Assembly: GCA_001599295.1 (NCBI GenBank)
Contig: BCGN01000004.1
Location: 1,737,676 to 1,801,675 of the forward strand
Origin: Sporopachydermia quercuum
Taxonomy: Eukaryota
Direction: 5' to 3'
Length of the DNA stretch: 64,000 nucleotides
Position 1 is the first letter of the stretch. Every line of letters begins with the position of its first letter. Both the position numbers and the translations under genes were made by a program. The notes below the pieces were generated by a model that worked only from the letters and a program-made list of their open reading frames with translations, was not told the origin of the DNA and searched no databases. Of this stretch, positions 19,201 through 60,423 are shown one piece after another.

Positions 19201-19210
19201 GTCACGTGAC
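19201..19210. promoter_or_regulatory. Cbf1/bHLH E-box GTCACGTGAC in the divergent APC4/TMA64 promoter
   Basis: Perfect 10-bp palindrome. Similar TCACGTGA at 39695-39702 and ATCACGTGAT at 49657-49666. Confidence 0.5.
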
Positions 19211-19688
19211 TGTAAAACGTTTTGGAAAACTGGAAGTTAAAAAGTGGGAAAGATTTCCAAAGTTTGATAAGACCATATCCGAAATTTAAAAAGTAGAGAT
19301 TGTTATAAAATGTTAGGAGAACTGGGGGAAGATTTTATAAAGAATCCAATAAACCGTAAGTGAAAAGGAAATTTTGATTTCATCTTTTTATTAGACGTCG
19401 ATTATTGAAAAATATTCGATTTTGATTAATTCGCTTGTTGCCTCCATTTGTCTTCTCCATGCGATTCCTTCCTCCTTCCTTACATTGTTCTTACTATCAC
19501 TATTATTTCCGAAATTTTCAATCAGCACCTCAAAAGAGACAAGAAGTCTTCTCACTTCTCTTCCTCTCCTTCACCTAACAGTTTTCAATTCTGATATATC
19601 CCGAAATCAGGTACATCAATAATGTCGTAGAGTATTTTAGGAAATTACCGGTTTTTCGTGCGATATATGTAGACTTTGTTCTATCAAA

Positions 19689-38217: not shown

Positions 38218-39537
38218 TCAAACGGCTACCTGTTTCATACAGAAAACAGCAAATCCGTGTTTCAGCTCCTCAGTCAAATTCTCATCGCCAATTTGCCATA
38301 CTTCAAATTTGCTGCTATTATTATTACTATTACTACAACATTCCAGAAGAAATGTCTCGGTTACCATAGGATCTCTTAATTGCATAGCTACTAGTATAAT
38401 AGTGTTTCTCCCGCATAGCTTATGAAGAGAATTAACAAATAATGGTACCAAATGCTCGTTATAAATTGTATCACAAGCAATAATTAAATCAGGTAAGGTT
38501 AAACTATTTTTGGAAAAACCATTAGAATTGTAAGTTGAGTTCTCTGGAGTACCATTAGATTCAATAGTCTCTTTCGACAGTGGAGTAATTATATCTAAAA
38601 CATTACTAACAGTAATATCAACGTTCTCCCAATCATATTCCACAGCGTCAATAATGGGAAAATAAGTACTAGAGTCAGAATGACTCTTTCCTGTGCTCCT
38701 GTTAGTGTTGATGGAAACTTTAGTACCAGCAGGAATGTACCTCACAGATCCTCCATTTTCATTTTCGGTATGAGAAATTTGGTGGAAATCGGACATTATA
38801 CCAGAAGATAACGTCGAAACGGAATTCGCCGGAATATTTTTTACTTCATTGCCTAGTAAACTGTGTGTAAATACTGGTTTATCAACATTTTCGATTATAT
38901 TCCGTCGCAACAGTTTCAGTAAGTGTGTNTGATCTGTTGCCAGATAGTGTTTCACTAAAGGACCAATGGCACAAGCTAGTATTCCGGAGACGCCAGATCC
39001 GAGTTCAACCACATTAAGCCCTGATCCCGCTTTCACCATTAAACCTGAAAACGGATTATTTCGACAATTCAGCAACCAGTCAACAAAAAGTGGAGATACT
39101 TTCCATAATAAATACCCTGTAGTGTTTACTTCTGTTCCCGAACTAATCCCACTGGGAGACTGATGTATATGAAGTTCAATGAACCTTTTGCAGACATTTG
39201 AAGTCGAGGTAGGCTCAATATTCAGGGTTGAACCCGAGTTTGTGGACACACCGGCATCCGTACAAGATCGTTTCTTTACCAAACGTTGTTTCCGCTTTCG
39301 ATTCCGATTCCGATTCCCATTCCGATTCCCATTCCGATTCCCATTCCGACTTCTAGTGGAGTCCTCTGTTAAAACTGACTTTCCTATAGTAACTTCTATG
39401 ATCTCATCAGTTCGGGATAAATATCCGAGATTTTGATTGTAGTCTCCCCGATGGAGAGAGTATAACTCAAAGATATGTTCCGATAGAGTTTCGGGCGAGA
39501 TTTGGTTGAATTTGGTAGTGTCAATATCGAAATCCAT
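38218..39537 (-). CDS. RKM5: Ribosomal lysine N-methyltransferase (seven-beta-strand), Rkm5-like
   Basis: QSPS..SS....TTG..LWK..P.F..WL, VVELGSGVSG, YLATD, IIACDTIYNEHLV, QLRD. Confidence 0.8.
   Translation of the reverse strand: MDFDIDTTKFNQISPETLSEHIFELYSLHRGDYNQNLGYLSRTDEIIEVTIGKSVLTEDSTRSRNGNRNGNRNGNRNRNRKRKQRLVKKRSCTDAGVSTNSGSTLNIEPTSTSNVCKRFIELHIHQSPSGISSGTEVNTTGYLLWKVSPLFVDWLLNCRNNPFSGLMVKAGSGLNVVELGSGVSGILACAIGPLVKHYLATDXTHLLKLLRRNIIENVDKPVFTHSLLGNEVKNIPANSVSTLSSGIMSDFHQISHTENENGGSVRYIPAGTKVSINTNRSTGKSHSDSSTYFPIIDAVEYDWENVDITVSNVLDIITPLSKETIESNGTPENSTYNSNGFSKNSLTLPDLIIACDTIYNEHLVPLFVNSLHKLCGRNTIILVAMQLRDPMVTETFLLECCSNSNNNSSKFEVWQIGDENLTEELKHGFAVFCMKQVAV
39301..39348. repeat. (ATTCCG/ATTCCC)8 coding hexamer repeat encoding RNGN/RN
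   Basis: Read directly inside RKM5. Confidence 0.9.
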
Positions 39538-40940
39538 TCGGAATAAAGTTCGAGATCCAAAATTTCCCAATTAGGATCAATCTTTCTCAAATTGGAAAAA
39601 GAGCCGAGATTTTATTGGTTTTGCTCGATGAGGAAGAAATGAGAAGAATCAAATACGTCGCCAAAAAATTAATTGTCCCGTGATCAAATATATTTCACGT
39701 GATCTGCTTTCAGTAATTTGTTTCAAATCGTCAAACGAGCTGGGTTTTCATTGTTGAGCTTCCAAGCTCAATAAATTTCACCCTATGCTGAGGATTGCCC
39801 TGGGAGAGACAAGACAAAAGTTAGTTGCTGCATTATATCTTAATAGAATATACATATCCTATCATAGATCGTTCGTGTCCTATGGTAAGTTCGGCAGTCA
39901 AATACTGAGAGAGAATAATAGAATTGTTATGAAGTACTCAGAATAGAAAGACTTTGCATATAATTTGAATAGAATTAGGATTAAATGACTGGAAGTTTGT
40001 CTAACAAATGAACACTTCCTGTATGAATGTCATACTAAAGTTCTCTTGAAAAAAAATTTTGTACCCATGATTTGGAGAGTAAGGTTACAGCAATCAATCA
40101 NGCAGAGTTTACGGAAATTATACCAAATTATGATAAAATCTCCGCATCTCAAGATGTTTTCAGACGGATAGATACTGAGTCTTATGGCTAACGTCATTTC
40201 TTTCATTGCATAGTCATCTGACTGTAAATTCAATTATCTTTTCCGATATTTTCTTTCGATTTTATGACTCATGTTACATTGCCCATTTTGGATTTAAACT
40301 TTTTATTTAATGAGCAAAGATCAAACTCAATTGTGTAAACCGGAGATTAGTCAAACTTAATTTCAATGAGAATTTAAGTTTANTAGAGAACTCATAAGCT
40401 TTACCTAACAAAGCCTATTATCATCAATACCTCAATTTTCGCAACATTTAGTTCCATCAATAGAGAGAAGCAAGAAGTATAGTGAGAAAAGGTATAATAT
40501 ATATGCTTGACTGGTTCAAGTTCTATAAGTTCTTTCTCTTATAATTCAGTTGTTTGCTAGAGTTAATCTGAAGCTGTTCAGTAATAATTTAGTTACTCTC
40601 ACCACTCAATTTCTTGTTCCTAGCCAAAAGGAGTTACGTATCGTAGCACAAGTTATTCAAATATTCTCCAATAATGTAGTTCACTTCTTATAGCCATTAA
40701 TAACATACTGGCGAAGTTAGGGTACTGTTCTTGAAAATGTTTCGGGATGGTCAATTGCAGGTCTTGAGCTAAACTCTAAAAAGTGTCAAAAGTAACTTGA
40801 TACGATTATCGAATGTGAGTGAGTAATGATTACAACTACAAAGGGAGTTTTCTTCTTTTTCAGATTGACTATGATAAGCATTATCTCTATTAGGTTGTCG
40901 CTTGATAAACTGTTCTATTATACCTACTAATCTATATTAC

Positions 40941-42782
40941 TTATTCAGACTCATCAAAAGAGTACATCCATGGTTTATCAATCACACTATCATTGCCCTT
41001 ACCGTTACCATTATCGTTACCATTACCACTGCCACTACCATTCCAGTATACTGACCCAGCAGTTACACTGGAACCTCCGTTCCTTGTAGGACTTCTATTC
41101 CTGAAGCTCGATAGTATTTTCTTAGGGGATTCCATTATCTTCTTCAAGGGGGATCCTCCATTACTGAGTCTTCTTGGTGATACAGATACCTCAGACGATG
41201 TAAACCTATAATGGTCCTTATTAATACGTTGTTGCTGATTTAGAGTAAATGTTGAACTAGAAATTGGGAAATTCTGGCTATCGAATGCAATTTGGGGAGG
41301 AGTCGACGTCTCATTGAGGATACCTGGGCTGGCTCCAGAATGAGATGCAAAATGAACGTCATATGACTCTCTAATTTCCATATTCACTGGATCAACTGTT
41401 GGTGGGGTAAATGAATCAAGAGAATCCTGTGAAACTCCTCCGCGTGGGATACTTAATAATGAAGGTTTTGAGCTTGAAGTACTTTTAGGAGTCCTCTGAG
41501 AGCAAGGAGATGCTATGGACATATGTTCTTGTGGTTGCCGTTGACCTTGCCTATTATTGGACGGAGAATATTGAACTGAGATATGGGTGTGGTTTCCGTT
41601 ATTTGTAGTTATCTTTTCTGATGATATTTCTAACTGGCTTTCTGGAAGTGCAGGCAAATGTGGAGCGAATCCNACATCATTAGTGGCTTGAGCGTTAGCA
41701 TATGCCATGTTTTCTTCTTCCTGTTGGATTTTTTGGTAGTATATTATGTCGGAAGGTTCGTTCCTTAAGTGTGGAGGTAGTAAATCGGGATTCATTTTCT
41801 GTAATGCTTCTGATTCCCAGAGTCTTACATGTTTGGTTTCCATTAGGTTATTTGTATTGTGTGATCCTAATTTCCTCACAGATGCTTTTCGGGATATATT
41901 AGAAACTGCAGTTGATCCACCGATGCCTAAGCCAAGGTTTATGCCTAGACCATCTGTTGTTGATTCTGGGCCTGACATAATAGGCATAGATACAGAGGAA
42001 GAGAGCAGAGTGTGTTTATGCTGTGGCTGTGACTGTGACTGTGAGAATGACCTTGACTGTAGTTTAGCCATAGAAAAATCTACAGGGAAATGGACATCAG
42101 GTCCCGTTGAATGAGCCACAAGGGTCGAATTTGATGTTTTCTCGCTTATGAATTTAACACTGTTCTCTCCGAACGTCGAAGGAGTAACATTTGAAGGGTT
42201 GGGTGACTTCCAGCTGAATCCATCTTTATGGGAATATATCAGCGTTGATGTTAGTGTCGATGGTGTCGCAGACGCTGAGTTTGAACCAGATCCGTTCTGT
42301 GAGCCATATCCGGATGATATAAATCGCCGACTTAATACGAATACTAATAAAAATGCAGATTGGAGCATTAAAGATGATATTATCAGAACACTCATCGCAA
42401 TTTCTATTCCAGTTTTACCAGAAAACTGTTGAATTGTAGATGCTCCAGGTTGTAGTATTTTTCCAATTATCAGGAATAATAACCCTAGTGTGCTTCCAGT
42501 AACTGATACTACTAGTAGTAGCAGTATAAGTATGTTGTATAAATGTGGTAGACTGATTTTATTAGATATTATGGCTATCAGAACGATGGCATTGAGAAAT
42601 TGAGTTGACGCGATTAGAGGATATGCTGCGAACGAGTAACTGCAGCTGAGTTGGTTGAATATTGAATATGAATACTGACTTGTGAGTACAGTAGATAATG
42701 ATGCAACAGTAAGGTTGACTAGCACTAGGACAAAAGCCCATAGTGTATTCAGCTTAATCTGAAGTTTTACTTGCACTATCAT
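40941..42782 (-). CDS. Membrane protein with ~4 N-terminal TM helices and a long Ser-rich tail (possibly Irc8-like)
   Basis: Hydrophobic N-terminus, E..AL..MN..LLPP.L motif, many SP/TP sites. Family assignment is tentative. Confidence 0.7.
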   Translation of the reverse strand: MIVQVKLQIKLNTLWAFVLVLVNLTVASLSTVLTSQYSYSIFNQLSCSYSFAAYPLIASTQFLNAIVLIAIISNKISLPHLYNILILLLLVVSVTGSTLGLLFLIIGKILQPGASTIQQFSGKTGIEIAMSVLIISSLMLQSAFLLVFVLSRRFISSGYGSQNGSGSNSASATPSTLTSTLIYSHKDGFSWKSPNPSNVTPSTFGENSVKFISEKTSNSTLVAHSTGPDVHFPVDFSMAKLQSRSFSQSQSQPQHKHTLLSSSVSMPIMSGPESTTDGLGINLGLGIGGSTAVSNISRKASVRKLGSHNTNNLMETKHVRLWESEALQKMNPDLLPPHLRNEPSDIIYYQKIQQEEENMAYANAQATNDXGFAPHLPALPESQLEISSEKITTNNGNHTHISVQYSPSNNRQGQRQPQEHMSIASPCSQRTPKSTSSSKPSLLSIPRGGVSQDSLDSFTPPTVDPVNMEIRESYDVHFASHSGASPGILNETSTPPQIAFDSQNFPISSSTFTLNQQQRINKDHYRFTSSEVSVSPRRLSNGGSPLKKIMESPKKILSSFRNRSPTRNGGSSVTAGSVYWNGSGSGNGNDNGNGKGNDSVIDKPWMYSFDESE

Positions 42783-44275
42783 TGTGTGTGGAGCCTGAGT
42801 GTGTGTTATTTTGTTGAAGATGTTTGCATTGTTCAATAGTTGAGATAAAATGTTCTGGAATTGGTGACGAATGAGTCAGAGGCTGAAAAGATGCTGAGAT
42901 ATGAGATGTTGTTGTGGTATTCCTGTTGATAGAACCAATAGAGGGATTTTAATTGGAAAAACTTATAAAACTATAGTACTTTTCTTGGGAACTATAATAT
43001 CAAATATCTTGGTGATGAATGGATAATTATACAACCAAATGATATTGATGATGGTAGTTGATGCTTGATTTCTCCTATGACCAAGACAATTATCAAGTGA
43101 GCTATCGCCAATCAGCACTATTATTCGCTCCACCTTAATCTTCCTATCCTTTCTCTTCTAAGCTTGCAATTAGCCTACCAATATTTTATCGTTGCGATTA
43201 TTTGATCTCCGTGTAAATAGTTCCTTTCACTATGGCAACTATGTTCTCACACTGTAACTACGAAGTAGCATTACTGTCAAAACAGTAATCTTAGATTGGC
43301 ATCGCTGAGTTTTTCCCAACCTTTTGTTTATGCTACAAAGGTTATTTTCTTGCACTGCTGTTGAATAATTGGAAGCACTGTTCCTTTAAACGAGTACGAT
43401 TTTCCTAATAAGAGGCTGAATTATTTGACGCTTGAGACGATAGCTTCAATCCCGAAATGGAAATACACAAATATGATCTATGGATTAATTGGGAAGTAAG
43501 AAAACAGATATCTGAGATGAGACTTGATGCATGTGATGGGTGTAATGGAGATATACTTGAGGGGAGAGGGGTGAAAAAGAGGAATGATGGTATTTGGGGA
43601 ATCATATTGAAAATATACTGCAAATGAGAGGAAATAAATATGCCCAAACCATTATTCTATCATTTTGAGTTATGGCCAATGATTTCTCTAATATATTTCC
43701 TTGTTTTAATCCGTATATTACCATCCTGAAATATCACCTCCCTCTTCCCGTAGAATATTTCACTTCCATGTAACTCTCTATGCATTATACATGCATGATA
43801 GACGCAGGAACGGCTTTTGAAAACTTCATATAAATCTCCTGTACGTACCCCCGTAATACCTTAACGTTAAGCTTCTAACTTTAATTTTGGTTTCATTTCC
43901 TTTTCCAGAACCTCTCTGTGGCTCATCTGAGTGCTCGTTCGTCGCCTTTTTCATCCATCCGTTGTCCATCTCATTGATTGTCTAACGAGACCCATCAATA
44001 GCTACACTTCAATTCTTCATTGGAATGCTCAAATATATTTTCTAGAATCCAAAATAGTATTAAGGTTTAAAATATTCTGCGAATCTGCAACCTTAGGTAT
44101 AGGAACGATTCCTAAAACAGTGTCTATAGGTGAGAAGTCGTTTGTTCCTTGTTAGAAAACTATACCAATGGTTTACGGAAGTCAGCCTATTTGAAATAGT
44201 AGAGTATCAAGTATTTGTGGCATTGCTACTATTCACCATTGAGGAGAATATTTAAGCTTTGTTGATAATCTCGGA

Positions 44276-46306
44276 ATGTCGGAAAGGGATCGTTCGACGG
44301 ATCTTGCAATCCATCCTGAATCGAAAACACAAAGGGCCAATGATGATCGAAACCGAAATAGCAGTCAGCATCGGATTAGAGATGACTCCGTTCCGAGAAT
44401 TTTGGAGGAAAGAGAATTAGAAACTTCGGATATTACTATCAATTTGGATTACCAAGAAATTAATGTACCGGAACAACATATTGAATTGGGGGGTCATTCC
44501 GAGCTCCATACAATGAATGGTTCACCAGGATATCCCGAGTATGATCCTGCGGTTACACGAGTAATTGTAATTCCATCCCAGTTATCCGAAACTGCTACTT
44601 CGGAAAAAGGATTCCTATTTGGGTCGATGCAAAACTCGAATTTATCTTCTAGTTCCCGAAATTTAGGCCAATCCTTCTCCGTATCCTCGGCTGCTTCGAA
44701 CTCTTCTACAGCCTCGAGACCATCCTCTAGGCCATCTGCAGTCAATCGGTTGTCGTCTAGTTTGTCAATGTTAAATCTACGACGCAAAACTTCTAGTTCG
44801 GCATTAAAGCTGAACCCGGCTTCTGGAACTTCGGAAACTTCTATTTCTGGTTCCGGAAATAGTAATGCACAATCTAATGTTCGTCCAAGCTTAGTGGAAC
44901 GACATTCATCTTCAGCATCTGGCTCGGGTTCTGGTTCTGGTTCTTCCTTATTTTTCCGGAAAAGTTACCGGTTTCGTTCCCAACAAGCAAAAGCTTCTTA
45001 TATATCTGACTCCAGTGTCTCCCAACCGGCTTCATCCGCGAAATCAATTCCTAAAAGACGCTCATTATCATTTTCTCCGTCGTTCTCATCTTTATCAACT
45101 ATCTCTTCCGGTTCTTCTTCCAATAACTATAATAATAGTCTAAAACGAAAACCCATCTTTAGAAGATACCAAAAATCATCTACAAATCTCGGAGAAGGTG
45201 TTGGTGGTACTGTTATTACAGTTACCCGAAAATCAGACCGGAAAATATTCGCCATGAAACATTTCCGGAAAAAAGACTTATTCGAATCAGAAAGAGAATA
45301 CTCTAAAAAGGTAACAGCCGAATATACAATCGGAAGTACTTTATTTCATCCGAATATTATAAAAACCATAGAAATTGCTCATGAAGGTGATTCGGTATAC
45401 CAGATAATGGAGTATGCCGAGTATGATCTTTTTCAATTAGTTATGAGCCGGTTAATGTCGGTGTCGGAAATATACTGCTGTTTTAAGCAGATTTTATCCG
45501 GTTTGCAATATTTGCATCATATGGGGGTAGCTCATAGGGATCTGAAATTGGACAACTGTGTTGTCACCGCAGGAGGCATTGTGAAAATTATAGATTTTGG
45601 AGCAGCTGTTGTATTTAGCTATCCATTTTCATCGGCGATAATCCCTGCTGTTGGAATTGCGGGGTCAGATCCGTATTTAGCTCCTGAGGTTTGTTCGGAA
45701 ATCAAATATGATCCGAGACCTGCCGATATATGGTCCGCAGCAATAGTGTTCTTTTGTATGCTTCGACGGAAATTCCCCTGGAAGAAGCCGATTTTATCCG
45801 ATCCTTCATTTAACAAATTTATACAGCGACCTGGAGAAAGTTTCCGAGAAGCGATTTCTCGGTCTAGAAGGTCGGAGATAATCGGACCGAAAGCTGGTGA
45901 GAAGAAACTGAACCCACCCCCATGGGATCCGATGCTTGCTACGAGGCCTGTGACTTCTAATAGAAGTCTTCAGAATTTACCCNTGCCCGGAAAAGAGGAT
46001 TTCGGAGAGAACCGACTTTTGAATTCTGTTCCCAAAGAAACCCGAGATCTTTTCCGAAGTATGGTAAAAATAGCACCATGTGATCGGATTAGTGTTGATG
46101 GATGTCTGAATTCGGAATTCATGCGCGGGGTAGAAATGTGTGAATGGTCCGAAAGTGCGGGAAAAGTTTTGTCTTCGAATTCCCATTTGCATACGCAATT
46201 GGACAGCTCAAAAGCCCATATCGCTAGTTATTTTAAGGATCGGGATGAGAAACGGAAAGAACGGGAAAAGGAGAAAATGCGGGATGCACGGAATCAAGGA
46301 AAATAA
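44276..46306 (+). CDS. NPR1: Npr1/Prr2-family Ser/Thr kinase
   Basis: Ser-rich N-terminus. VTAEY.IG.TL.HPNII.TIEI, HRDLKLDNCV, IIDFGAAVVFSYPFS, GSDPYLAPEVC, YDPRP.DIWS. Confidence 0.88.
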   Translation: MSERDRSTDLAIHPESKTQRANDDRNRNSSQHRIRDDSVPRILEERELETSDITINLDYQEINVPEQHIELGGHSELHTMNGSPGYPEYDPAVTRVIVIPSQLSETATSEKGFLFGSMQNSNLSSSSRNLGQSFSVSSAASNSSTASRPSSRPSAVNRLSSSLSMLNLRRKTSSSALKLNPASGTSETSISGSGNSNAQSNVRPSLVERHSSSASGSGSGSGSSLFFRKSYRFRSQQAKASYISDSSVSQPASSAKSIPKRRSLSFSPSFSSLSTISSGSSSNNYNNSLKRKPIFRRYQKSSTNLGEGVGGTVITVTRKSDRKIFAMKHFRKKDLFESEREYSKKVTAEYTIGSTLFHPNIIKTIEIAHEGDSVYQIMEYAEYDLFQLVMSRLMSVSEIYCCFKQILSGLQYLHHMGVAHRDLKLDNCVVTAGGIVKIIDFGAAVVFSYPFSSAIIPAVGIAGSDPYLAPEVCSEIKYDPRPADIWSAAIVFFCMLRRKFPWKKPILSDPSFNKFIQRPGESFREAISRSRRSEIIGPKAGEKKLNPPPWDPMLATRPVTSNRSLQNLPXPGKEDFGENRLLNSVPKETRDLFRSMVKIAPCDRISVDGCLNSEFMRGVEMCEWSESAGKVLSSNSHLHTQLDSSKAHIASYFKDRDEKRKEREKEKMRDARNQGK

Positions 46307-46712
46307 AAAGTGGGGTAACTGCTCGAAACTACGAAAACAATGTAGGATATGTTCCGGAATCTGCTAATCATGAAAGCTTTTAATACATAGGAGATTGATA
46401 ATAACAGAAGCGATAGACTCACTATTTCTTTATTTTCAGTTTAAACCGGAAACAATAAGTATTGGCTATACAATGAATCAGTAAAATAAAAACTATGCAT
46501 CATAAATTACAACAACATCGGAAATAACATCGCTTGTACTTATTACCTATTGATTCCGTCTTTGATCTACAGATTAAACCTTTCTGTACCCAGTGGTCTT
46601 GGGTCGTATATACAGTATAGATTTATAACTTAGTCATTTTCTATGTTTTTATTTACAAGTATCAATTATCTTTCCGAAATCAATATCAAAACTTTCCGTT
46701 ATTTTTTCCAGT

Positions 46713-49026
46713 TTAACAAACCTTAATGAAATATTCTCCTAAGTAGGCTTCTGTAACCTTACTAGGACTGCCCATCATAACATCTGATCCAGTGACTGTC
46801 TTTGGGAAAGCAATTACATCCCGAATACTATCCGTTCCATACATCATAGCTACTAAACGATCAAAGCCTAATGCAATTCCTGCATGGGGGGGACATCCTG
46901 TTCCGAAAGCACGGAGTAAATGGCCAAATAGGTCACTAGTTTCAATTACTTCCGAACCAGGTTTATGCACTCGAAGAATCTCGGAAAGAATATACCGCTG
47001 TAAGGTCTCGTCGTGAATTCTGGTCGATCCGCCTCCGACTTCAACTCCATTAATAACTAAATCATAATGTTGGCCTCGGATGCTTAACGGCTTATTAGAT
47101 TTTAACATGTGATAATCATCTGTATTCAGCATAGTAAACGGATGATGGGTTGAAACAAACGCCGAGGTATTATATTTCGGGTATAATGCCCATTTTGAGC
47201 CCCCGTTTTGGTCCCTATTCTCATTCTGTGCTGTCTGGGGAGCTTCTTCTTCTTGTGGGGTAAAAAGTGGGAAGTCGACAACCCAATTTGCTAAGAAATC
47301 CGTCTCAGAAATTCTCCTACCATCAGCAAAGTTTCGATTATACTGAGATTTCGGGAAAAGGTCAGCATTCTCGGAAATCATTTGCCGAAGTCTTCCCATT
47401 GGGGTTGGATTCTCATAGCTGGTTACTTGCCGCGACGACATGCAGACGATATCACCCGGTTGGACCGGGAACTTTCGGTAAATTGCTTCCAATTGTGAGG
47501 AATCGGTTGGGATCTCCGCCAAATCTCGGAAAAACTCTAACCAATTATTAGTGTCTTCTTTTTCCCCAATGGCAATAATTTTGGGAATTCGGAACGGATA
47601 TTTGGCTTTGTTACCTAAATAAGCGAGAATTTTCTTTCGTTCTTTACCGGAATTAAACGCTTGTGGAATAATTAGTAAATCCGTAACAGGAAACTCTTCA
47701 TTGCCGGTTGATTTTATCCCAGTTGTCTCAGTTAAGTTTACTATTTCCAACCCCAATCTCAAATCGGGTTTATCTATTCCATATCGGGAAAGAACATGGG
47801 CATAAGTAAGTTCAGTTAGTCTCCCTGTTTCTTCCGACGTCTCTATAACTTCTCCGGTATCGGGATTTATAGTATATAAGCGTTTGCTAACACCATTAGG
47901 AAAAATCGCCGACATCACGTCCTCTATCACGTTCCGAACATCGGAGCCAGAAGCAAAAGCCATTTCCAAATCCACTTGGGTAAATTCGGGTTGTCTGTCG
48001 GCTCGGAGATCTTCATCTCGGAAGCATCGAGCTAGTTGATAGTACCGGTGAACTCCAGAAGCCATTAACATCTGTTTATACTGTTGGGGACTTTGTGGTA
48101 GAGCATAGAATAAACTTTTCCTCCGACAAGGAACTAAAAACTCTCGAGCCCCTTCCGGGGTCGATTTAAACAAAAGCGGAGTTTCTACTTCCGTGAATCC
48201 GAACTTTTCTGATTCCAATACGGACCGGACGATTGAGGCAATCTTTGCACGGAGCCTTAACGCTTTTTGATAGTAAGCGTCCCGAAGTTGCAAATATCGG
48301 AATTGTTGCGGGAAATCTTTAGGTTTGTGTTGGAAAGAGCTCAATTGGGCACCTTGTGGCCCAGCAAAGTTTAAGATTTGAATATCGAAAACGTTTATTT
48401 CAGCCCGAGGTTTACTTAGTTCTGTATTTCCTCCGGAATTTTTTACCGAAGGATTCCTTTGGTCATTGCTGAAAAGGGAAACTGTTCCAGTGACGCAAAC
48501 AGCTGATTCAATCGACAAGTTCCGAACTGATTGCTTCTCNGATGTATCCGTCAATTGGATCCGATCTCCGTTAGTATCTCTAAGCTGACTAAAGGCTAAG
48601 CTCTTTGACATCTTCCGAGGGTTCACTGTGATCCATCCGTGGAGGATAACTTTCGCCCGAGATTTCTCGAGTTCGGAAGCATTTTCGACTATTTCAGCGA
48701 TTGTATGCGTTGCTTGCGGAAAGGAAACTGTTGAATGGAAGTATCATGTTAATATGCAGATGAAATGCCGAAGTAGCCATGAAAGGAGAAAATGCAGAAC
48801 AGAGATTGGAAAGAAAACACTTACATTTTGCGATAACTTCATCTAAAGGCGGAAGTTCAATTTTTTCCACTTCCGAAGGAGAAGTTCCATTATTTCTTCG
48901 GAATATCCGAACATTGCCTGGGGCTTGTATAAGTCTACTAGTGATCACCCCGCTGAAAACAATTCCCGGTCGGATGAGACGTCGAGTTGACATTCTACCC
49001 GTTCGGGTTGGACATAATTTTAACAT
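46713..49026 (-). CDS. MSD1: Mitochondrial aspartyl-tRNA synthetase; exons 49026-48825, 48727-46713
   Basis: STPEGAREFLVP, YALPQSPQQYKQ.LM, CFRDEDLRADRQPEFTQ, PPHAGIALGFDRL, IRDVIAFPKT. Intron GTAAGT..TATTAAC..CAG joins the presequence exon. Confidence 0.96.
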
Positions 49027-49964
49027 CACAAACNATTGATGCCGATCGAATGAATATCTCGGAGATTTCTGAAGTTATCGGATGAAAACAGCATTTTGGA
49101 ACCACAAAGACATTTTAATCCGTCTATCACAGATGTACAATCACAATTTGTCCAATTTTATCAGTGAACCTGAAGACATTTTATTGATTAGATGAACATA
49201 ACAGCATAGTTCGAGATGAGACTTGAAGTGACTGTAAGGAGGTGGAACTGCGTCATACAAAGAGTATTTTGAATAAAAGCAATGAAGGAGAACTACTTTA
49301 TTTGCATATTGAAGAAAATTTAATTCTGACATGTTTTGTTTCAATAAACAGTCTTGGAATAATGGAATTCCCGTTAATTCTCTCGGTTTGAGTATAAGTG
49401 AATAGGGTTATTATTTCCGTTATGTGAAAATATCGGATATTATGTGAAACTCCCATCATACGGCAACACAACGGAAGGAAAAGAGCAATAAAAATAAGAA
49501 ACTTCAGAGCAAATAGAAGAATTTTTAGTTTATATTATTAAATATAGTATTTCCCTTTTCATTATGAGCTTTCTTACAAATACATCGTGATAAGAAAGAT
49601 ATTAGTTATTGCTATAAAGATTAGGAGGAATTACAGTAAAACATAATTACATAAGCATCACGTGATACTATTATCTCCGTAAATATTGGAGTTACTATTT
49701 TCGCCTGGATTACTTAAACATCCGAGCTTTTCGGACTTTATCGGATCTCTTCAGAGAGTTATAATTGTCAATTCAACCGTTTAATTCACTTTCAATATAT
49801 TCTCCTATTCATTTTGTAGTTACTGAAAGTATTCATGTCTGCATGCCGTTTTCGATATTTACGAGCCCCCAAACACTATCAACTAGCTTCTCGCACTATA
49901 GATCAATCTCCGTAATTTTCTTTCTCTGCCCACTTTGACTCCGCCAATACCTATGTTCTCCATT

Positions 49965-51832: not shown

Positions 51833-52708
51833 TTTGAGATAATCAAATAATTTTAGTTATATATGAGCCTCAGATGCGACTCAAATAGCTACTGCTTTTG
51901 TTCTTTTAGTTGAATAAATAAAGCAATGCCAAACAATGTAGGTGAATTTGGTTGGCGGAGGGAGGCAAACAAGGTACAAGTGTCACAATGATATTTTTCT
52001 GAAACAAATAATAATCAACTAAGCCACACTTCTCTTATTAGTATTGGTTACAGAAAATAAGGAAGTAATAAGTTATCAGATCTGTCAATAGATAATAAGC
52101 CCTGGCGGAAGATCCGATAGTTGGAAAGCAATTGCCTTCCGAGAAAAGAAGCACAAAGACTTTAAGATTATTCTTCGGATGATGTAAGCAATTATTCAAA
52201 CGAGAAGAGATATGAGGTTAAATATCCAAAGGGAAATCAGACAGNTACTTAAAGGTATGGATTTGGGTAAACTAGGGGAATAGGAACAGGAAGAGCATTA
52301 TAATAGTCAACGAATCCTATTAGTCTGTATCTTTATACCCCAATAATAGTAATATGAATAAAAAAGAATGTCCAAATATTTCAGTTAAGTGCTGTTGAAA
52401 GAAGATCCTATTAGCTTTCCGGTATATTTCGTTCAGTCTCCAGTATACCATCTTTAAGGTATTACGGAAACTATCAGCCTCATCATGTATCAAATTTCGG
52501 ATATCATAAGCTATACTAATTTCCGGTTTACATTTTCCAAACACGTATTTTAAATCTTCTTTTTGATTCATCTTCCTCCGGCTTTCCATTCAGCGGAACA
52601 TCCAAGATAACTCAGTGGATTTTAAGCAGTTCGCAAAGAAATCACACTAGATGTTTTTATAACTACTGATCGAACTTTAGTCGCTGATCTGTCTCTCAAG
52701 GCATCAAA

Positions 52709-53420
52709 ATGGACGCTGAAACTGAAGTCCCTGTTAAGAAGATCTCGGTATACTTACCATTGGTCTACGTCGCCATTCTCATCTCGGCGTTGATTATTTT
52801 CTCTTCCATTTACAGGAAACGAAAAATAAGTAAGTAATTATTTTATTTTTATTTTTTTGTAGCTACTGTGGCTTAGATGTCCTCATTTCCTTGAGTCTAA
52901 GGAGCTTTCACCAAGTCACATTTAGTTTAAACCTTTTACTAACATATATCCCTCTATAGGCAAATTATCCTCCTTAAGACCATGGTTCACAAGTGAGAAC
53001 AACGCTAGAAACATATTTTTGGAATTGAAAGCCACAGTTCCTGTGCCCCCACCAAAACTATTAAAAGCGGCTTTGATCCAAAGAGGTGCAGAAGCTTTGA
53101 GACGTTCTATGAAACTACGACAAGATCAACCCTCCATGCAACAGTTGTATCAACGCGGCTGTATCGGAGAAGATCTATGGAATAGATTTCAAACAGCACA
53201 AAAGATACAGGAGCTAGAATTAAGAGAAGTGGCTTTCGAAGCTGAAACTTTGGAAAAAGGATGGGGTGGTACTTTTTTCCCTGTAGCGCAGGAGGTTCTT
53301 CTGAATGAAGCTCTTAGAAGGAGAATTGATGAGCTTCCTAATCGAATGAAGACAATAAAGAGTATGTGGGGTGAAGGAGGGGAAACCGAGGAAAATGTGG
53401 AGAAGGAGGGTCGAGATTGA
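52709..53420 (+). CDS. SEC66: Sec63-complex subunit Sec66/Sec71; exons 52709-52829, 52960-53420
   Basis: ISVYLPLVYV TM, FSSIYRKRK, LLKAAL..RGAEA.RR..KL, G.IGEDLW.RF. Canonical intron. Confidence 0.92.
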
Positions 53421-55043
53421 TATTAGTAAAGCTGATTTATTTTGGTTTCTAGTGAGTTCGGAGTATACGTTTTAGAAGTATGAAAATGGGAAGAAATGAG
53501 GAACTATTGTAGATAGGACGGACAGTGAAGAGAGAGAGAAAGAAAATACATGTGATATCACGATATGGAGAGCTTATATAATCTGAAAAACATATCTAAT
53601 ATGCTATATTATATTATTGGATGAATGGTACATTAAGTGATGGCAATGTTTATGGAATTCAGAAGGTAAAAGATGGTGGTGATTTTACCCTAAATAGAAA
53701 AAGATATTTAGAGAGGAAACGAATAGACTATCAACAAGTACTTAGCTCCTGACATACCTATCTATAATAAAAACACTAACTCGACTTGGAATTGAAGATA
53801 ACTTAGTTGTTATTGTTGTTCTTAATATTACGACAATAGGAACAATTATTTAACTGTTATCGCTATCATTTCTCTAGCAGTAAAATAAAGAAAAAAAAGT
53901 GAATCCGAATGAAAAGTAATGTATGATATCAATTAACTAATTAACATAATATTCTTAAGTGCATTAATTGTTATTAATGTTATAAATTCAGTGAAGTTTA
54001 TTGTCAAATATATNTAGACTATACTTATGTCAGTAATAACAGCACGAAAACTGCCTTTTGTTTGGTACTTGTTTGTCGTCTACCAACATAACTACTGCTT
54101 TCTGTTTGTATTTTATGTGCAATTGTTACTTAGGTGCTGATTATGATGTCGTTGATATTGATGTTTAACAATTTGATTTACCAGTCTATTGTATGGACTA
54201 AAGGGAATTCTTTCACCGAAAGAATTCATTGATATTAATTGGCTGTCAGCAAGTTTCACCCATTTCACGTATCATATTAATAATTACTCTTTTNACAGCA
54301 TGCTGTAGATGTATTATCATATTGGAATAACCACTGATAAGCTGGTTGTCTATGAAAATAAAAATTCAATATCACATACTTATTGATATGAGAATCATCA
54401 ACAGAAAGTGAGATTTCTGTTCTGGCACAGACTCCGACATAATCGAGCTAAGATTTTTGTTTAATTCCAGAATATAAGGAATTATGAGCCATAAGCTTAT
54501 GGAATCNATGAATAGCAGCTGCTAAAATTAGTTCATGAGTCAACTAATAGAATGGTAAGTGAGATTTTGCAAAATGAACTAATTTATGCTGGCCTAATCT
54601 AATTATAACTTATGGTAACTATAATATGACAATAATGCAAAAGTTGATACCATTAAGTAGTATATATATGAAATATGAATAATAANAATTACTGAAAATG
54701 AAAAAATGGTAGATATAACTATAATTATGTTCAAACTGAACATTATTAGATCATATGTCTCGAATTCTCCTTTCGATGACGACGACAATTTCTTCCGCCT
54801 TTTTATTCCTTCTTGTCATTTCGGAAAATATTTCAAATTGCNCCACAATTATCTCACATATTGGAATAGAAACATGTATATGAAACTCAGTATTATAGCA
54901 TGTAAAGCCTTCCATTATAGTCAAAGAAACATATATATACAAGTTATGTATAACGGAAAAGGTATCAGAACGGAATGGCAAACGGAAGAAATAGGGAACT
55001 AGAAACTCTATAATGAAATCTAAGGTATTTTNTACCCTCATTT

Positions 55044-58000
55044 TCATTTCTTTCCTTTCTTTTTGTATACAACTTTGAATCCATTCCAGTCGTCGTCTTC
55101 TGCTTGTTTCTTACCGCTTTTGGCAATGATTTCCGACCACGAATCCTTATTTGTTGTACCTGCCTCTCCAGCATTTGCTCCACTTACTCCACTGTAACTA
55201 CTATTAAAAGCATTCACTCCACTATTTCTGTTCACCCCGCTATTGAACATTCCTTGTAAATCAAATTGGGGGCCAGCAAGCTTCCGACGTCGGATGAATT
55301 CGGATGCAAATCTTCTTCCGTCTAGAGTATTAGAGTTAGCGTAAATAGAATCAGCAATAATGTCAAATGTGTCCTGTGAGTTATCTGGTAACGATCCAAA
55401 AATGGCGATTAGTTCCGCTTTGTTAACTGAGGGTTTAAGTTCAGTAAAAGCGGTTTCAAGCCAGTATGTAAATTCCGAGGCAGCGATAGTGGCAGAAGAA
55501 GATTTAACAGCTGCTGAAGAAGCGGGGCTTGAAACGGCCCGGAGCAGTGCAGGATTTGAAACAGAGGTTGCCCCACTTTGTCGGATCGACGGCGGCTTTG
55601 GAGTCTGTTTAGTTGGTTTGTTATTTGATCCGACAGTGATCCAGTCGTCCGATTCCGAAACTGAAATATCATAGTTCGAACCAGTTGAGCCAGCCAGATC
55701 GGTTGAATCAGCGGATGACACGGATGAATTAACGGAAGCAGCTGCAGCAGCTTTCTTACGAGCAGCAGTGGCTTCCATTTCTTCCTTTCGGATCTCTGCA
55801 AATGGTTTTGTATCCTTATCCACGGAAGAAGCTGGCTTGGAAGCCCATGGAGCAATACTACTAATAGGAATCTCGGATGTATTTGGTTTAGATGGCGAGT
55901 TCAGTTTCGAAGCAGACTCGCCTGTGGTTCCCGATTGGGAAGGTGTTCCGAGATGCTCGGATTGGGAATATTCCGGATCAAGATATTCAGCTGGCAGCGG
56001 AACAAAGCTCTTCTTCTTATACTTCTTTTTCAATAAAAGGGCCGGAACAGGAGTTTGAGGTTTGGACTTTTGTTTAAAAGTCACAGAGTCCCAATCATCC
56101 GACTCTTTTCGGTTTGTTGGGTTATGTGAGGTGGTAGTACTTGTGGATTTATGATTGATCGGGGTACTGGCTCTTTCTTTAGCAACATTAGCCCAAGGAG
56201 CAACAGGCGTAGGTTCTTCAGAAGNAGAAGCATAGGCATCAATAATCTCGGTACCGGACGCCAAATTAGGCATTTTTTGCAAGGAATTAGAGATTCCAAC
56301 CGAATTTTCAGTATTTTCAGGTAGGGAATTTCCCTTAAGTTTTGAAGATTCAGAGAAATTAGGTAATTCTGTCTTAACTGCCTGTCGAACAGTCTTTTCC
56401 GTTTTGACGGTAGAAGATTTGGCCACAGTTTCCTGTTTGGTTGCCATTTTTTCTGAGCTTTTCTTTTTAGATAAAGTTTCCGATTTTTCTGCAATTGCAT
56501 TATTTCCTGTTTCTTCATCTACTTTTACTCCATTATTATCATTGTCCCCGGAATTCTTATCTTTATAAATCTCTTCCGGCTGTATTGCCATCTTTACTAT
56601 ATCTTCTGGAATAGTTTGAATAATAGACCCAAACCCATTGTCGGCACTGTTAATACTTCCACTTCTGTTTCCCACGTTTGGAATTAATTGTCCAGTAACA
56701 TTTCCGAAATCCGAACCGGGAACTGGTTGTTGTGTTCCGGTATTGCTCGCTCCAGCATTGAGTTCCGTATCCCAACCGAAACCAGGACCTGGGTTTCTGA
56801 TAATAGGTACGTCAAATTGGCCAAATCCGGAAGTANTAAACCCGCCGGTTACTCCCGGAGTCCCCCACTGTGAAAACATTGGTTGTCGGAGATCTTGAGT
56901 AGGTGTGGATGTACCGGAATTAGATTGTCCCACGATGGGAACATTCGCGGGGTAAAGTTGTGGGCCGAAACGTGGATTCACGTACCCGGCATGTGGTAAA
57001 GGAACCAAGAAGGGTTGATTAGGCTCTCTTAATAGTGACACAAGCTTATCTAATCGGATATAACCGGAATCATGACTCCTTCTTAATTGGAGGTCTGATG
57101 TAAAATAGGACATTGAGTACCATTCTTGCATAAGAGGACCTGCGAAGGGACCTTGTTCATTACCTTGAGGGTCTAGATAGAACCATTGTATGAANGCAGG
57201 GTTCATCGGGCCTGTATTCTGGGTTGAAAGCGGGGTAATTCCAGGTGGGAAGAAAGCGGGAGAAGGAGAAGATGGGTTTGTTTGAGATTCGGAGAAGTTT
57301 GTACTCCAAGGGGAAGGAGAAGAGGGATTTAATGAAGGGTTTAGTGGGGAGTTCAATGAGGTAGTTAAAGATGGGTTTCTCTCTAAAACAGGGTGCGCAC
57401 CTGGAATAGTGGAAACAGACGAGNCGGCAGCTAAAGGAGAAGAATCAAGGTTTAAGAAAGAACCGGAAGAGGACAAATCAAGCATAGAAGCAGAAGATTT
57501 CGGCTTCAGGTTCAAATCCAAATTATCAAAGTCATTTGACCCGGAAGACGATACCTCACCTACACCGCTGTTGCCACTAAATCGGCTGAATCGGCTTGTT
57601 TTCTTGACATAGGCAGGATTTGTACCGATATTCAACCCCAATTTAGACTCTAAACCATCTTTCTCAATAACGGAAAGCTTCTTCCGTAACTCTTCCTTCA
57701 TCTCTTCCGTTCCTTCGGAAAACAATGTCCCGCCATCTCTCATTTGATTATAAATATTAACCATTTCACCGATTGTGTACTTATTACTGGAAGGGTTTGT
57801 GAGACCAAACGAAGAATCAGCAGTGATATCGGCAGAAATTCCGGAAGTTATGTTGGATGTCTTCGGTTTGAATCGATCATCATTTCCAAAAGAACTGTTA
57901 TTACTATTGCTGCTATTCATTCTCCGGGATCGGGGATTGTTTCCCTGGTTGTTATGAGAATTATTCAGGCTTCTGCTAATAAACTTCGATCCCGACTCTC

Positions 58001-58526
58001 GGTTTCCACTTCCGCTTCCGTCCTTATCCTTATGAGTAATCCTAGTTGTACCCGAAGATGGTTTCGAAAACGCTACCTTACCAAAAGAGGAAGAGGTTCC
58101 GTTCTGCCTTCGGGATTGAAATCCCGAGGAACTATTAGAACTATTAATTCCTCTGGATAGTAAGTTACTAGCTGACATTCCGTTCCATGGACCTTTTGTT
58201 GCCGACGCAGAATTAGAAGCACCGAAACCAGAAGACTCGCTTGTATTCCTACCAAACGAACTAGAAGTTGGTGGTAATTGAGAAGGGTTATTCCCGTTTG
58301 CGCTTGATTGAGAAGAATCTGTGGTTTTTGGTCTCATCCTAGATTTGTAAATTGTTAGAACAAAGAATAATGATGTAGTTGTGATACAAATACTATCTGT
58401 TGTTCAGTATTTCATATGCGATGAATCACAAACAATACAGTACAAAGTACAAAGGTAAGGCTCAAAACACAAATTGAAGACTTACCATTCTGGACCAAAT
58501 GCTAAAGAAGATGACGAAGAAGACAT
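55044..58526 (-). CDS. SMY2: GYF-domain protein (Smy2/Syh1/GIGYF); exons 58526-58486, 58338-55044
   Basis: WFYLDPQGNEQGPF....MQEWY...YF GYF domain and IADSIYANS.TLDGRRFASEFIRRR. Splicing creates the N-terminal FGPEWMR motif. Confidence 0.9.
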
Positions 58527-60423
58527 TGTACAAAACGTAAACCAGACACAATTATATAATAAGAATAAGAATTTAATTTTTCGTGCTTTATAATGATTTC
58601 TAGGAGTTTTCGATTGTTTTTCTTCCTTTGTTTTGCCAGCAAATTATGTGACAATAAGTGAAATTGAATGAATGTTGAAGTAATGCAGACCAGAGTTGAC
58701 TTCCAAGGTAAAGAGAATTGGATTGNTTTTTATGACAATTAGTTAAAGTACAAATAACTGAAACTACTTTTATGAGATTTGTGATAATATCCTCTTGAAT
58801 AAAATGTATATTTTGGTTGAATTATATCAATTAAATGTTGCAATTTGGTTGCGGACTTCTTGATCGGTTATACAAATTGATTCTTGTGTGAATTTTCACC
58901 ACACCGTTTATTAGCTTGGTTTGTGCAAGGTACAGTAAAGTTACTTCTGTTTGGGTCACTTTTCTTTGGACGGAATTTTTTCCCGTTGGATTTTTGATTA
59001 TACAAATGAAAATTTTCTTTCTGTGACAAATTCACAGTACTATTTTGTACTGGTTTGTGGAGAAAGCCGGGTAAAGGAGGACAANAAATAATCGGGAGGT
59101 GGTTGGGAGGTAGCCTAAACGGTGGTTTGGTTAGAATTATTTGAGATGCTGTGGTAAAATTATTATTAAAAAGTAAAACTGGTGAGATCTCCTTCTTCAA
59201 TAGTTTACGGAAATTATCTGTCTTAACTAGCATAACTTACTGGAGTTTGATTATTTAATGATCTCTACTATCTGTCTTGTATGAGGATAGCAATCGTAGA
59301 AAGAGCCTCATCTTCTGTGTATGAATGATAAACACGGAACTCTTGGAACTCTCTGTTGAGTCAGGTACTCAGAGTAGAGACAGATTACATTCCGCAGGCT
59401 TTTGTTCATAAATTTATCCATTCAAGTTGGGTGTACTGGAGTTGTGCCTGTATGTTGNTAATTGTCTTTTGACTGTTTAAGCATTGATTAATTGTTCGTC
59501 TTATAAAAAGCATCGAGCATTAGATAACTGGGACGAAGAGTGAAATAAGGGCCAGAAGCTGTTTTAGATTCGACGGAAGAACTCAGTCAATAAGCAAAAC
59601 GGAATCAAACCTTCGCTTAGTATTTGAACGATAGCTTGTTTATGTTAGAACTCGAAAAACTTCAATAGTTATAGGTATCAAACATTTGGACTGAGTTGAA
59701 GATATACGCCATCAATGGTACTAATTGAGAGCTTCAATTGAAGCTCTAGTTTATCTCGGATTAGATATTAAACATGAATATTGACTATAATTTGTTTCAG
59801 TACAATGTAAACTGTACAACAAATGATATATATAAGCATGTCTGGTGCTATTCTCAAGCCACAGAGCTTTTTATTAACAAGTATTCAAGATTCTAAATGA
59901 GCTCGTAGTGAAAGCAGAATAAGCATAAGCAGTAATAATAACGATAAGAATAAACTTAATAACAATAAAATATTTGCTTAAACATTTTATTAACCTACTG
60001 AAAGAATTATTANCAATAGTGAATGAAAAACAATTGGTTTGTACGTAGATAAAGACGAAATACTGGTGTCGAACAATAGACGAGTGAATTACAAAATTTG
60101 TATCACAATACTTTTAAATGGTTCTATGGTCTACTTGTTGTTTCTAAAAATGGTAAAGCTCATCCAACTATCGATCAGAAGAAAAGTTTGAAGTTGGCAT
60201 TAACTCAGTACAATTATCTTTTGCATACTCGTGACATGCACCGTATTCAATCAGTTGAAGATGTTATCTAGATTTCATCAAAAGAACTTTGTCATCTAGC
60301 AGTGTTTGGAACAATAAAACCTTCAAACCGCGTTTCCTACGACAAGCAAATGTATCAAAAGACTTCACCGTTTTCAATTCTCATCTCCTATATCATCCTA
60401 TCATAAACTGACCAACAATACAT

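Follow-up and report, generated by a model that had tools for sequence, protein, structure and literature searches.

Four step-edged tracts enriched in the trinucleotide CCG/CGG in a budding-yeast nuclear locus

The locus and its four tracts

The window analysed here is a 64,000-nt stretch of budding-yeast nuclear DNA (Sporopachydermia quercuum, contig BCGN01000004.1) with a GC content of 36.5% and 36 single-base Ns. In its right-hand part, the trinucleotide CCG/CGG (one word read on either strand) was found to be strongly enriched in four tracts that cover genes and spacers alike. An open reading frame (ORF) resembling the lysine methyltransferase gene RKM5 occupies 38218-39537 on the minus strand (Pfam Methyltransf_16), an NPR1-like kinase gene lies at 44276-46306 on the plus strand, and a SMY2-like gene with a GYF domain lies at 55044-58337 on the minus strand, the latter two also assigned by Pfam. 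MSD1, which encodes the mitochondrial aspartyl-tRNA synthetase (46713-48611, minus strand), and NPL4 (49965-51716, minus strand) were recognised both by Pfam and by named homologues. According to Pfam, the functions of the tract genes are mutually unrelated. Two further genes lie among them. SEC66, on the plus strand, is split by an intron, with exon 1 from about 52712 and exon 2 at 53109-53420 (Sec66 Pfam match and reading of the frames). ORF613 (40941-42782, minus strand) is an orphan ORF of 613 aa, the translation of which reads as a membrane protein with a Ser/Pro/Gly-rich tail.

Tract limits were set from the list of CCG/CGG site positions, and the rest of the same 64-kb window served as the background for all comparisons. 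The four tracts total 13,394 nt. They contain 226 copies of TCCG plus CGGA (16.9 per kb), compared with 121 in the other 50,606 nt (2.4 per kb), which corresponds to a ratio of 7.1 (Fisher P = 6.7e-71). The initial annotation, made from the sequence alone, had counted 16 copies in 55261-55860, 10 in 47281-47880 and 0 in 22321-22920, and these counts were reproduced exactly. The enrichment had been described as patchy, and this was borne out: the density is high in the RKM5-like ORF (13.6 per kb of ORF), the NPR1-like gene (22.2), MSD1 (20.0) and the SMY2-like gene (16.7), moderate in NPL4 (11.4) and weak at 53.4-54.8 kb. Measured kb by kb along the window, it amounts to 10-26 in 44-53 kb and 55-58 kb, 11 in 39-40 kb, and 0-5 across each of the first 38 kb. 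A single continuous domain at 38780-59600, as had been proposed, was not recovered; instead, four step-edged tracts are separated by background-level stretches.

Tract 1 (38766-39604, GC 0.406) covers the 5' part of the RKM5-like ORF, and its left border falls within the coding region; 31 CCG/CGG sites were counted in the 839 nt of the tract versus 4 in the 3' 548 nt of the ORF. Tract 2 (44272-52785) begins 4 nt before the ATG of the NPR1-like gene, runs through this gene, MSD1, a 1.35-kb spacer, NPL4 and most of the NPL4/SEC66 spacer, and ends about 75 nt inside SEC66; its ORFs carry 30-42 CCG/CGG per kb. Tract 3 (54795-58294) comprises the SMY2-like gene together with about 250 nt 3' of its stop codon and stops within the ORF, 43 nt from its 5' end. 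The 514 nt upstream of this gene (58338-58851) contain no CCG/CGG at all (P = 6.8e-8 at the tract rate). Tract 4 (58852-59392, GC 0.364) is small and weaker, with 12 CCG/CGG in 541 nt, and spans an unannotated ORF of 121 aa (58868-59233, minus strand). Two of the intervening stretches are referred to below as holes. Hole 1 (39605-44271), with 5.4-8.7 CCG/CGG per kb, consists of the 5' flank of the RKM5-like ORF, ORF613 and the 5' flank of the NPR1-like gene. Hole 2 (52786-54794) contains SEC66 (8.5 per kb) and an AT-rich convergent spacer of 1.4 kb (3.6 per kb).

The borders at 38766 (inside a coding sequence), 44272, 54795 and 58294 are step-like, each being completed within about 100 nt; at 44272, the density leaps from about one site per 150 nt to about one per 25 nt. 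The presence of the word in intergenic DNA, which had been claimed, was confirmed by sites at 49677-49742 and 52106-52594, and the spacers inside tracts carry 19-39 CCG/CGG per kb versus 6.6 per kb in the rest of the window. All three 3' flanks of tract genes are enriched. At the 5' side, four of the five flanks examined are at or near background (those of the RKM5-like, NPR1-like and SMY2-like genes and the NPL4-proximal 603 nt), and the MSD1 5' flank, which holds an unannotated ORF of 110 aa, is dense in CCG/CGG.

Three sequencing runs were found to contain this DNA, all of them possible sources of it. Contigs from two of them, X1 and X2, which come from two studies, were compared with the window over 39001-59000; being possible sources, these runs are not independent of the window. 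Their contigs span every tract border at even depth and without differences. Therefore, the pattern is not an assembly chimera. X4 and X5, which represent two other organisms of the same study, matched only through conserved pieces of 37-51 nt.

The single-base Ns are also unevenly distributed: 26 of the 36 lie in 38900-60050 (from 38929 to 60013), where 11.9 were expected (Poisson P = 2.7e-4), and 6 of them fall within 54014-55032. This N-rich domain of 21 kb is co-extensive with the tracts and holes taken together and is the one hint of a link between the tracts and high recombination. The contigs of run X2 break exactly at the N at 48540. They may mark positions at which a diploid is heterozygous, in which case the domain would be a block of retained heterozygosity.

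The enriched word and compositional controls

The initial annotation had named TCCG/CGGA as the enriched word. Its enrichment was upheld, but the unit proved to be the trinucleotide CCG/CGG, with 430 copies in the tracts versus 332 elsewhere (4.9x), and every NCCGN pentamer is raised by 3.5-10.6x (TCCGA/TCGGA by 10.2x, and TTCCG/CGGAA by 9.9x). Because all NCCGN are raised, TCCG/CGGA can be regarded as the commonest form that CCG/CGG enrichment takes in an AT-rich setting. Relative to the expectation from base composition, CCG/CGG was calculated by hand to occur at about 1.8x in 44.0-58.4 kb and at about 0.6x in the background. In the tracts, CCG is preceded by T in 53% of cases versus 33% elsewhere and followed by A in 47% versus 28%. 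At the 63 non-coding sites inside tracts, the context is W-T-CCG-A/T (W is A or T), with T at 71% of sites at -1 and at 56% at -2.

Longer words are enriched as well. TTCCGAA/TTCGGAA occurs 20 times in the tracts versus 6 times elsewhere, and 8-9-mers of the TTCCGAGAT type are also enriched, e.g., TCCGAGAT with 10 copies versus 1. A longer motif as the true unit was rejected, since the TTCCGAGAT-type sites have no flanking sequence in common and account for a small fraction of all sites. The hexamer repeat in the RKM5-like ORF is, as had been noticed, built from the word: TTCCGA is repeated 10 times at 39290-39349 in tract 1, where it encodes (NG/NR)n, and this is the only word-based tandem array detected by Tandem Repeats Finder (TRF). 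A dispersed or tandem repeat family was also considered and rejected, as the 30 CCGAGA sites have unrelated flanks and there is this single TTCCGA array.

Other words containing CpG are little changed (ACG/CGT 1.2x, GCG/CGC 1.5x, TCGA 1.4x), and the GC dinucleotide is at 1.1x. When CCG/CGG sites were masked together with 2 nt on either side, the GC content fell from 0.406 to 0.362 (background chunks, 0.337-0.349), so that nearly all of the GC excess was gone. After the same masking, 14.0 CpG per kb were left, compared with 11.4-13.4 in the background, and the CpG excess was fully gone. A residual CC/GG excess persisted, with 144 versus 76 for CCC/GGG, 263 versus 197 for TCC/GGA and 311 versus 245 for CCA/TGG. 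Among dinucleotides, a deficit of 312 CA/TG stands beside gains of 274 CG and 438 CC/GG. AA/TT runs are not lengthened in the tracts. An unmethylated CpG island was rejected as an explanation because CpG outside CCG is near background (1.2x and 1.5x for ACG/CGT and GCG/CGC versus 4.9x for CCG/CGG).

The contribution of codon usage was estimated by simulations in which the protein was kept fixed and codons were drawn from ORFs outside 38-60 kb, tilted to match the GC content at third codon positions (GC3) of each gene. The initial annotation had held that the enrichment would have to outlast correction for GC3 and amino-acid content, and it did in all four genes, with simulated means of 9.0-21.1 versus observed counts of 20-55. 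Specifically, the simulated numbers of TCCG/CGGA were 11.7+-3.2 for the NPR1-like gene, 10.8+-3.2 for MSD1, 9.0+-2.9 for NPL4 and 21.1+-4.3 for the SMY2-like gene, and those observed were 45, 38, 20 and 55, respectively. The observed count was reached in 0 of 500 within-gene synonymous shuffles for the NPR1-like gene, 1 of 500 for MSD1, 73 of 500 for NPL4 and 0 of 500 for the SMY2-like gene. Counts above those of synonymous shuffles indicate that the words are also built across codon junctions. ORF613, with 16 CCG/CGG observed versus 20 simulated, is at background in spite of its Ser/Pro/Gly-rich composition and therefore provides an internal negative control.

Within the tract genes, the synonymous-codon route that had been suggested was verified. 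The usage of CCG is 0.22 in tract genes versus 0.06 elsewhere, that of CGA 0.29 versus 0.09, that of CGG 0.25 versus 0.06 and that of TCG 0.17 versus 0.07; TCC is also commoner (0.20 versus 0.09). GC3 is slightly higher in the tract genes (0.35-0.39 versus 0.25-0.35), GC overall is at 1.1x, and Ser makes up 13.5% of the tract-gene proteins versus 8.7%. The choice at four-fold sites was found to depend on the next base. Before G, TCN codons end in C and in G at 0.32 each, compared with 0.10 and 0.07 elsewhere; before A, CCN codons end in G at 0.35 versus 0.07; and ACG is raised only before G (0.18 versus 0.06) and lowered before A/T. In two-fold codons followed by A/T, where neither CC nor CG can be formed, the C/G-ending fractions were 0.28 versus 0.39, 0.37 versus 0.37, 0.40 versus 0.42 and 0.26 versus 0.36. 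When word-independent codon choices in the four tract genes were compared with those in 17 other ORFs, 14 of 17 measures gave P>0.05; those that differed were GCA, AGA and TCA, all of them in families with word-forming alternatives. Thus, the tract genes do not have the foreign overall codon usage that would be expected of introgressed genes. The amino-acid composition of MSD1 is ordinary among 120 homologues (a modest deviation is seen for Gly, z=+1.9, Trp, -1.8, and Leu, -2.1; Arg is at +1.5 and Lys at -1.4).

Since GC does not rise at silent sites that are neutral with respect to CC/CG, the overlay is not due to classical GC-biased gene conversion (gBGC), a GC-rich donor, a CpG island or codon adaptation. 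In the case of gBGC or a GC3-rich domain, a shift from W to S (C or G) regardless of neighbours would be expected, and this was not seen at two-fold sites, the GC dinucleotide being at 1.1x. Translational codon adaptation was rejected because spacers are as dense as genes, both orientations are equally frequent and the excess is larger than codon usage itself would give.

On the sense strands of the eight ORFs inside tracts, 183 CCG versus 194 CGG, 88 TCCG versus 100 CGGA and 39 TCCGA versus 48 TCGGA were counted, and the CCG excess is present in all three reading frames. The 2.8 kb of non-coding DNA inside the tracts contain 40 TCCG/CGGA, whereas 7.0 were predicted from other intergenic DNA (GC 35.2 versus 33.5%). 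Therefore, the word overlay is a feature of duplex DNA, strand-symmetric and frame-independent. The spacing and orientation of CCG/CGG in the tracts revealed no preference except for CCGG itself (49 cases), and the only spectral peak above the 95% permutation null was that of the 3-nt codon period, in tract 3 (9.59 versus 9.51). The dispersed chromatin-factor sites invoked in the initial annotation are thus not supported in the form of a classical cluster: there is no spacing or orientation rule and no non-codon periodicity, and four of the five 5' flanks are near background. A cluster of transcription-factor binding sites of the Zn2Cys6 type was rejected on the same lack of fixed spacing and orientation and on the same flanks, together with the high density in gene bodies. 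A regular expression for point centromeres (centromere DNA element CDEI ... TTCCGAA) gave two weak matches with spacers of 67-73% AT, neither inside a tract. Taken together, these controls show that the overlay does not depend on GC3, amino acids, codon usage or strand, that it is specific to CCG, and that its borders are sharp.

Gene ancestry and other features of the window

Homologue searches for a donor signal covered the tract genes MSD1 and NPL4. Among the 120 best matches listed for each, identity to homologues from a wide range of Saccharomycotina orders is 43-53% for MSD1 and 50-65% for NPL4, and no close relative, self-match or outlying donor was found among these matches. Judged by sequence comparison, both are ordinary orthologues, from a budding-yeast lineage that is isolated. 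Because the matches are spread over Saccharomycotina without a donor, a distant horizontal donor is excluded. Metagenomes were also scanned with an MSD1 alignment; the 80 loci kept had 31-50% identity and were judged too distant to be sister DNA.

The matches of MSD1 and NPL4 share contigs in several other yeasts (e.g., the match pairs P0008/P0133, P0011/P0137 and P0002/P0147), and nearby locus tags were found in Lachancea nothofagi (LANO_0E07866g/07756g) and Wickerhamomyces mucosus (WICMUC_000051/000042). The linkage therefore appears to be ancestral across Saccharomycotina. The order NPL4-SEC66-SMY2 matches that of YBR170C-172C in Saccharomyces cerevisiae. These results agree with the earlier statement that the genes are ordinary and syntenic. 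The accompanying statement that horizontal transfer is unlikely holds for a distant donor and does not extend to a close lineage: the borders at 38766, 44272, 54795 and 58294 are abrupt and unrelated to gene structure, as is expected of introgressed segments, and introgression or hybrid ancestry from a close lineage fits the geometry of the tracts well.

Elsewhere in the window, ordinary genes were recognised by Pfam, namely those for a cysteine dioxygenase, an ALG9-like mannosyltransferase, APC4, eIF2D, PIG-S/GPI17 and aspartate-semialdehyde dehydrogenase. No tRNA genes and no Rfam families were detected in the window. Outside the tracts, four of the six TTCCGAA/TTCGGAA sites lie at 18481-19507, within 1 kb of the divergent APC4/eIF2D spacer. 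The sequences flanking these four bear no relation to one another, and the density of CCG around them is close to that of the background. Partial ORFs represent UMP1 (about 60.5 kb) and, at 62.4-64 kb, a WD40 gene. Given these partial ORFs and the SEC66 intron, this yeast seems to be richer in introns than Saccharomyces, and split genes may lie in several of the ORF-free gaps of the window.

No homologue of ORF613 was found at E<=1e-3 in a search of 5.8 billion proteins. N-terminal membrane segments were predicted in it, and it ends in (GN)n encoded by GGT AAT (TRF unit CATTAC, 40991-41042). The similar NG/NR repeat in the neighbouring RKM5-like tract gene is, unlike that of ORF613, written with GGG/CGG.

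The convergent spacer between SEC66 and the SMY2-like gene (53421-54794, 1.4 kb, GC 0.29) is free of ORFs and long for an interval between two terminators in yeast. No RNA family or Pfam match was obtained for it. Repeat families were absent from 51.7-55.1 kb, the spacer having only short repeat pairs at chance level. Three unannotated small ORFs of 110, 89 and 121 aa, all on the minus strand (48694-49026, 52320-52589 and 58868-59233, respectively), stand at local peaks of CCG density and have no Pfam match; they may be real small genes or merely part of the tracts.

Possible origins of the tracts and comparison with known systems

We tentatively propose, as the best available explanation, that a context-specific fixation bias favouring CCG/CGG, of a repair or conversion type, has acted in recombination-delimited tracts of separate history. 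At weakly constrained sites, the base completing CCG/CGG would be chosen, mostly in the context W-T-CCG-A (e.g., TTCCGA/TCGGAA), and the sites affected would be synonymous third positions, codon junctions in all frames, first positions of Arg codons (AGR versus CGR), 3' flanks and spacers. Mismatch correction or gene conversion would resolve mismatches toward C:G inside CCG/CGG, in the manner of bacterial very-short-patch (VSP) repair. Such correction would raise CCG/CGG and spare ACG/GCG and the GC3 of neutral contexts, and it would act on both strands and blindly with respect to coding. The population-scaled strength of the bias would be about ln(4.9), i.e., roughly 1.6. The tracts would then be alleles inherited from a haplotype or closely related lineage that had been subject to the bias, a situation comparable to that in hybrid or introgressed yeast genomes (PMC5091853, PMC7204223).

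In mutation-accumulation lines of S. cerevisiae, the highest mutability is reported for the contexts CCG and TCG, and the same is reported for CCG in Schizosaccharomyces pombe (PMC4704713). Because CCG is highly mutable and the same word is reached through several different base changes, a fixation bias would account for the pattern more readily than a mutation bias. The step borders, the border in the middle of a gene and the holes would indicate tracts delimited by recombination, at single breakpoints, and not a smooth field. We infer the fixation bias, its repair or conversion type and the separate ancestry of the tracts from these features of the pattern. The regional mutational or gene-conversion bias suggested in the initial annotation survives in this proposal as an overlay at the DNA level; the two-fold sites exclude ordinary gBGC, and the step borders and holes are at odds with a smooth regional field.

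Several observations weigh against the proposed fixation bias. The background was taken from one window. NPL4 exceeds its synonymous shuffles weakly (73/500 for TCCG), and the CC/GG excess left without CpG after masking is not predicted by purely CCG-directed repair. Among the one-step neighbours of TCCGA, TCAGA/TCTGA is at 0.74x and TCCAA at 1.29x, so that no clear source word is depleted. Both the direction and the mechanism are read from a stationary pattern. A bias acting in situ at recombination hotspots predicts graded edges and affected promoters, and neither was seen. A donor lineage in which the bias had acted would be hypothetical, and in their word-independent codon usage the tracts cannot be told apart from the background.

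An alternative, which we consider unlikely on balance, is that the words are selected arrays of low-affinity CGG half-sites, a few hundred in number and spread across genes and spacers, that could recruit a DNA-binding or chromatin protein to this domain, with weak selection on each word (4Nes of about 1.6) wherever coding allows. The flanks CGGAA, CGGAT and TCGGA presumably resemble half-sites of fungal Zn2Cys6 proteins. Recognition of duplex DNA would be expected to produce the strand symmetry observed, and selection would be consistent with the convergence of different base changes on one word and with the sharpening of the flanks to W-T-CCG-A/T at the 63 non-coding sites. Such words would be rare or absent where misregulation is possible, as they are in four of the five 5' flanks, and the tracts lie in a 21-kb domain that is also dense in Ns and contains the AT-rich, gene-free spacer of 1.4 kb. 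However, the flank specificity is weak, all NCCGN being raised; apart from CCGG, spacing and orientation have no preference, and apart from the codon period, no periodicity exceeds the 95% null. In addition, the genes are unrelated, and neither the border in the middle of the methyltransferase coding sequence nor the SEC66 and ORF613 holes follow a functional logic.

Somewhat more doubtful is a local context-dependent bias of mutation or repair synthesis acting in situ, confined by chromatin or replication, by which W would be changed to S beside C/G (CA to CC/CG, TG to GG/CG). The loss of 312 CA/TG fits the gains of 274 CG and 438 CC/GG, the residual CC/GG excess suggests a process that extends runs or copies neighbours, and coding and non-coding DNA are equally affected. 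Such a bias would have to raise several types of substitution and only where they complete CCG. Extension of runs was not observed for AA/TT, and steps of <=100 nt, a border inside a gene and holes of 2-4.7 kb would be hard to maintain while silent sites re-equilibrate. Moreover, CCG is hypermutable in the yeasts studied, so that mutation should erode the words (PMC4704713).

A further idea, which we regard as improbable, is that the CCG words constitute a chromosomal 'address', i.e., several hundred putative half-sites for a CGG-reading protein that would mark the domain of about 21 kb (38.9-60 kb), with its dense and perhaps heterozygous Ns and its AT-rich spacer, as pericentromere-like or otherwise architecturally special in a deep-branching budding yeast. 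We know of no description in fungi of a sequence-encoded, protein-read domain code of this kind.

It is very improbable that the pattern is an artefact or a by-product of GC3, amino-acid content, expression-linked codon usage, an assembly chimera or a repeat family. The tract genes do include those for Ser/Pro-rich proteins, and their Ser content (13.5 versus 8.7%) and GC3 (0.35-0.39 versus 0.25-0.35) are raised, but the simulations preserving protein and GC3 fall short of the observed counts, ORF613 is at background and non-coding DNA is equally enriched. The words also occur in both orientations, the X1 and X2 contigs cross the borders, and there are no shared flanks or repeat families. Thus, this explanation is largely refuted. 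Selection at the RNA level for pairing between UCCGA and UCGGA can be given hardly any credence: the two complementary words are equally numerous within transcripts, the 3' flanks are enriched and most 5' flanks are not, and the folding of three of four tract mRNAs is slightly better than that of their dinucleotide-shuffled versions (mean z -1.0 to -1.4, compared with -0.5 to +0.6 for six other ORFs), but the folding effect is weak (z 0.0 for NPL4) and an expected by-product of complementary words, CCG-CGG distances are no shorter than CCG-CCG distances, and the clustering of unrelated genes and the border inside a gene are left unexplained.

Intragenomic compositional heterogeneity in yeasts usually takes the form of GC3 variation, which is attributed to gBGC or introgression; in the present case, a single trinucleotide carries it. 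Full-text literature searches, which were not exhaustive, yielded no account of a kb-scale overlay of a single trinucleotide in a yeast. Whichever explanation applies, codon usage is distorted, since the Arg and Pro codons that are rarest in the rest of the window (CGA, CGG and CCG) become common in the tract genes, and such distortion would mislead methods for codon-bias analysis, expression prediction and the detection of horizontal gene transfer. To our knowledge, no repair process that shapes word abundance, as VSP repair does in bacteria, has been reported in a eukaryote. If a context-specific correction or conversion bias is at work, the tracts would reveal such a process and would visibly mark their ancestry or their past recombination. 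If the words are instead selected for protein binding, they would amount to a domain code superimposed on coding sequence.

Several known systems resemble the tracts in part. The half-sites of fungal Zn2Cys6 proteins are CGG, and element CDEIII of point centromeres contains CCG; the known sites are paired with fixed spacing and located in promoters, or belong to a single centromere of about 125 bp. They have the same core triplet with T/A flanks as the tracts, whereas here hundreds of unpaired words lie mostly in gene bodies. At recombination hotspots, gBGC is a fixation bias that favours all changes from W to S, at silent and non-coding sites alike. The tract overlay is similar to it in inferred strength and in affecting both silent and non-coding sites; unlike gBGC, it is accompanied by no rise at two-fold sites beside A/T, and ACG/GCG are barely changed.

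In Saccharomycotina, 'mutational clusters' or GC3 domains of physically clustered genes have been described (Cope & Shah 2022, PMC9246145). As in those clusters, neighbouring genes share a non-adaptive nucleotide bias that sets them apart from other genes of the genome and distorts codon usage. However, those domains are defined by GC3 and comprise tens to hundreds of genes (PMC9246145), whereas here the bias concerns one trinucleotide in tracts of 0.5-8.5 kb with step borders, and neutral silent GC is unchanged. The GC-rich left arm of Lachancea kluyveri chromosome C, 1 Mb in length, has been read as an introgression (PMC4271529, PMC3590768). Like that arm, the tracts are contiguous segments of foreign composition with ordinary genes; in contrast to its general GC shift over 1 Mb, they are word-specific, of kb scale and interrupted by holes, and protein searches gave no donor signal.

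The best analogue is VSP repair by Vsr/Dcm in Escherichia coli and Salmonella, to which the loss of CTAG and altered oligonucleotide frequencies in E. coli have been attributed (PMC5337935, citing Bhagwat & McClelland 1992). By this context-dependent mismatch correction, some words become commoner and others rarer whether or not they lie in coding DNA, and a CCG-specific overlay could arise in a comparable way. VSP repair is bacterial, acts genome-wide and depends on a known pair of methylase and endonuclease, whereas the enrichment described here is eukaryotic and confined to tracts, and its mechanism is putative.

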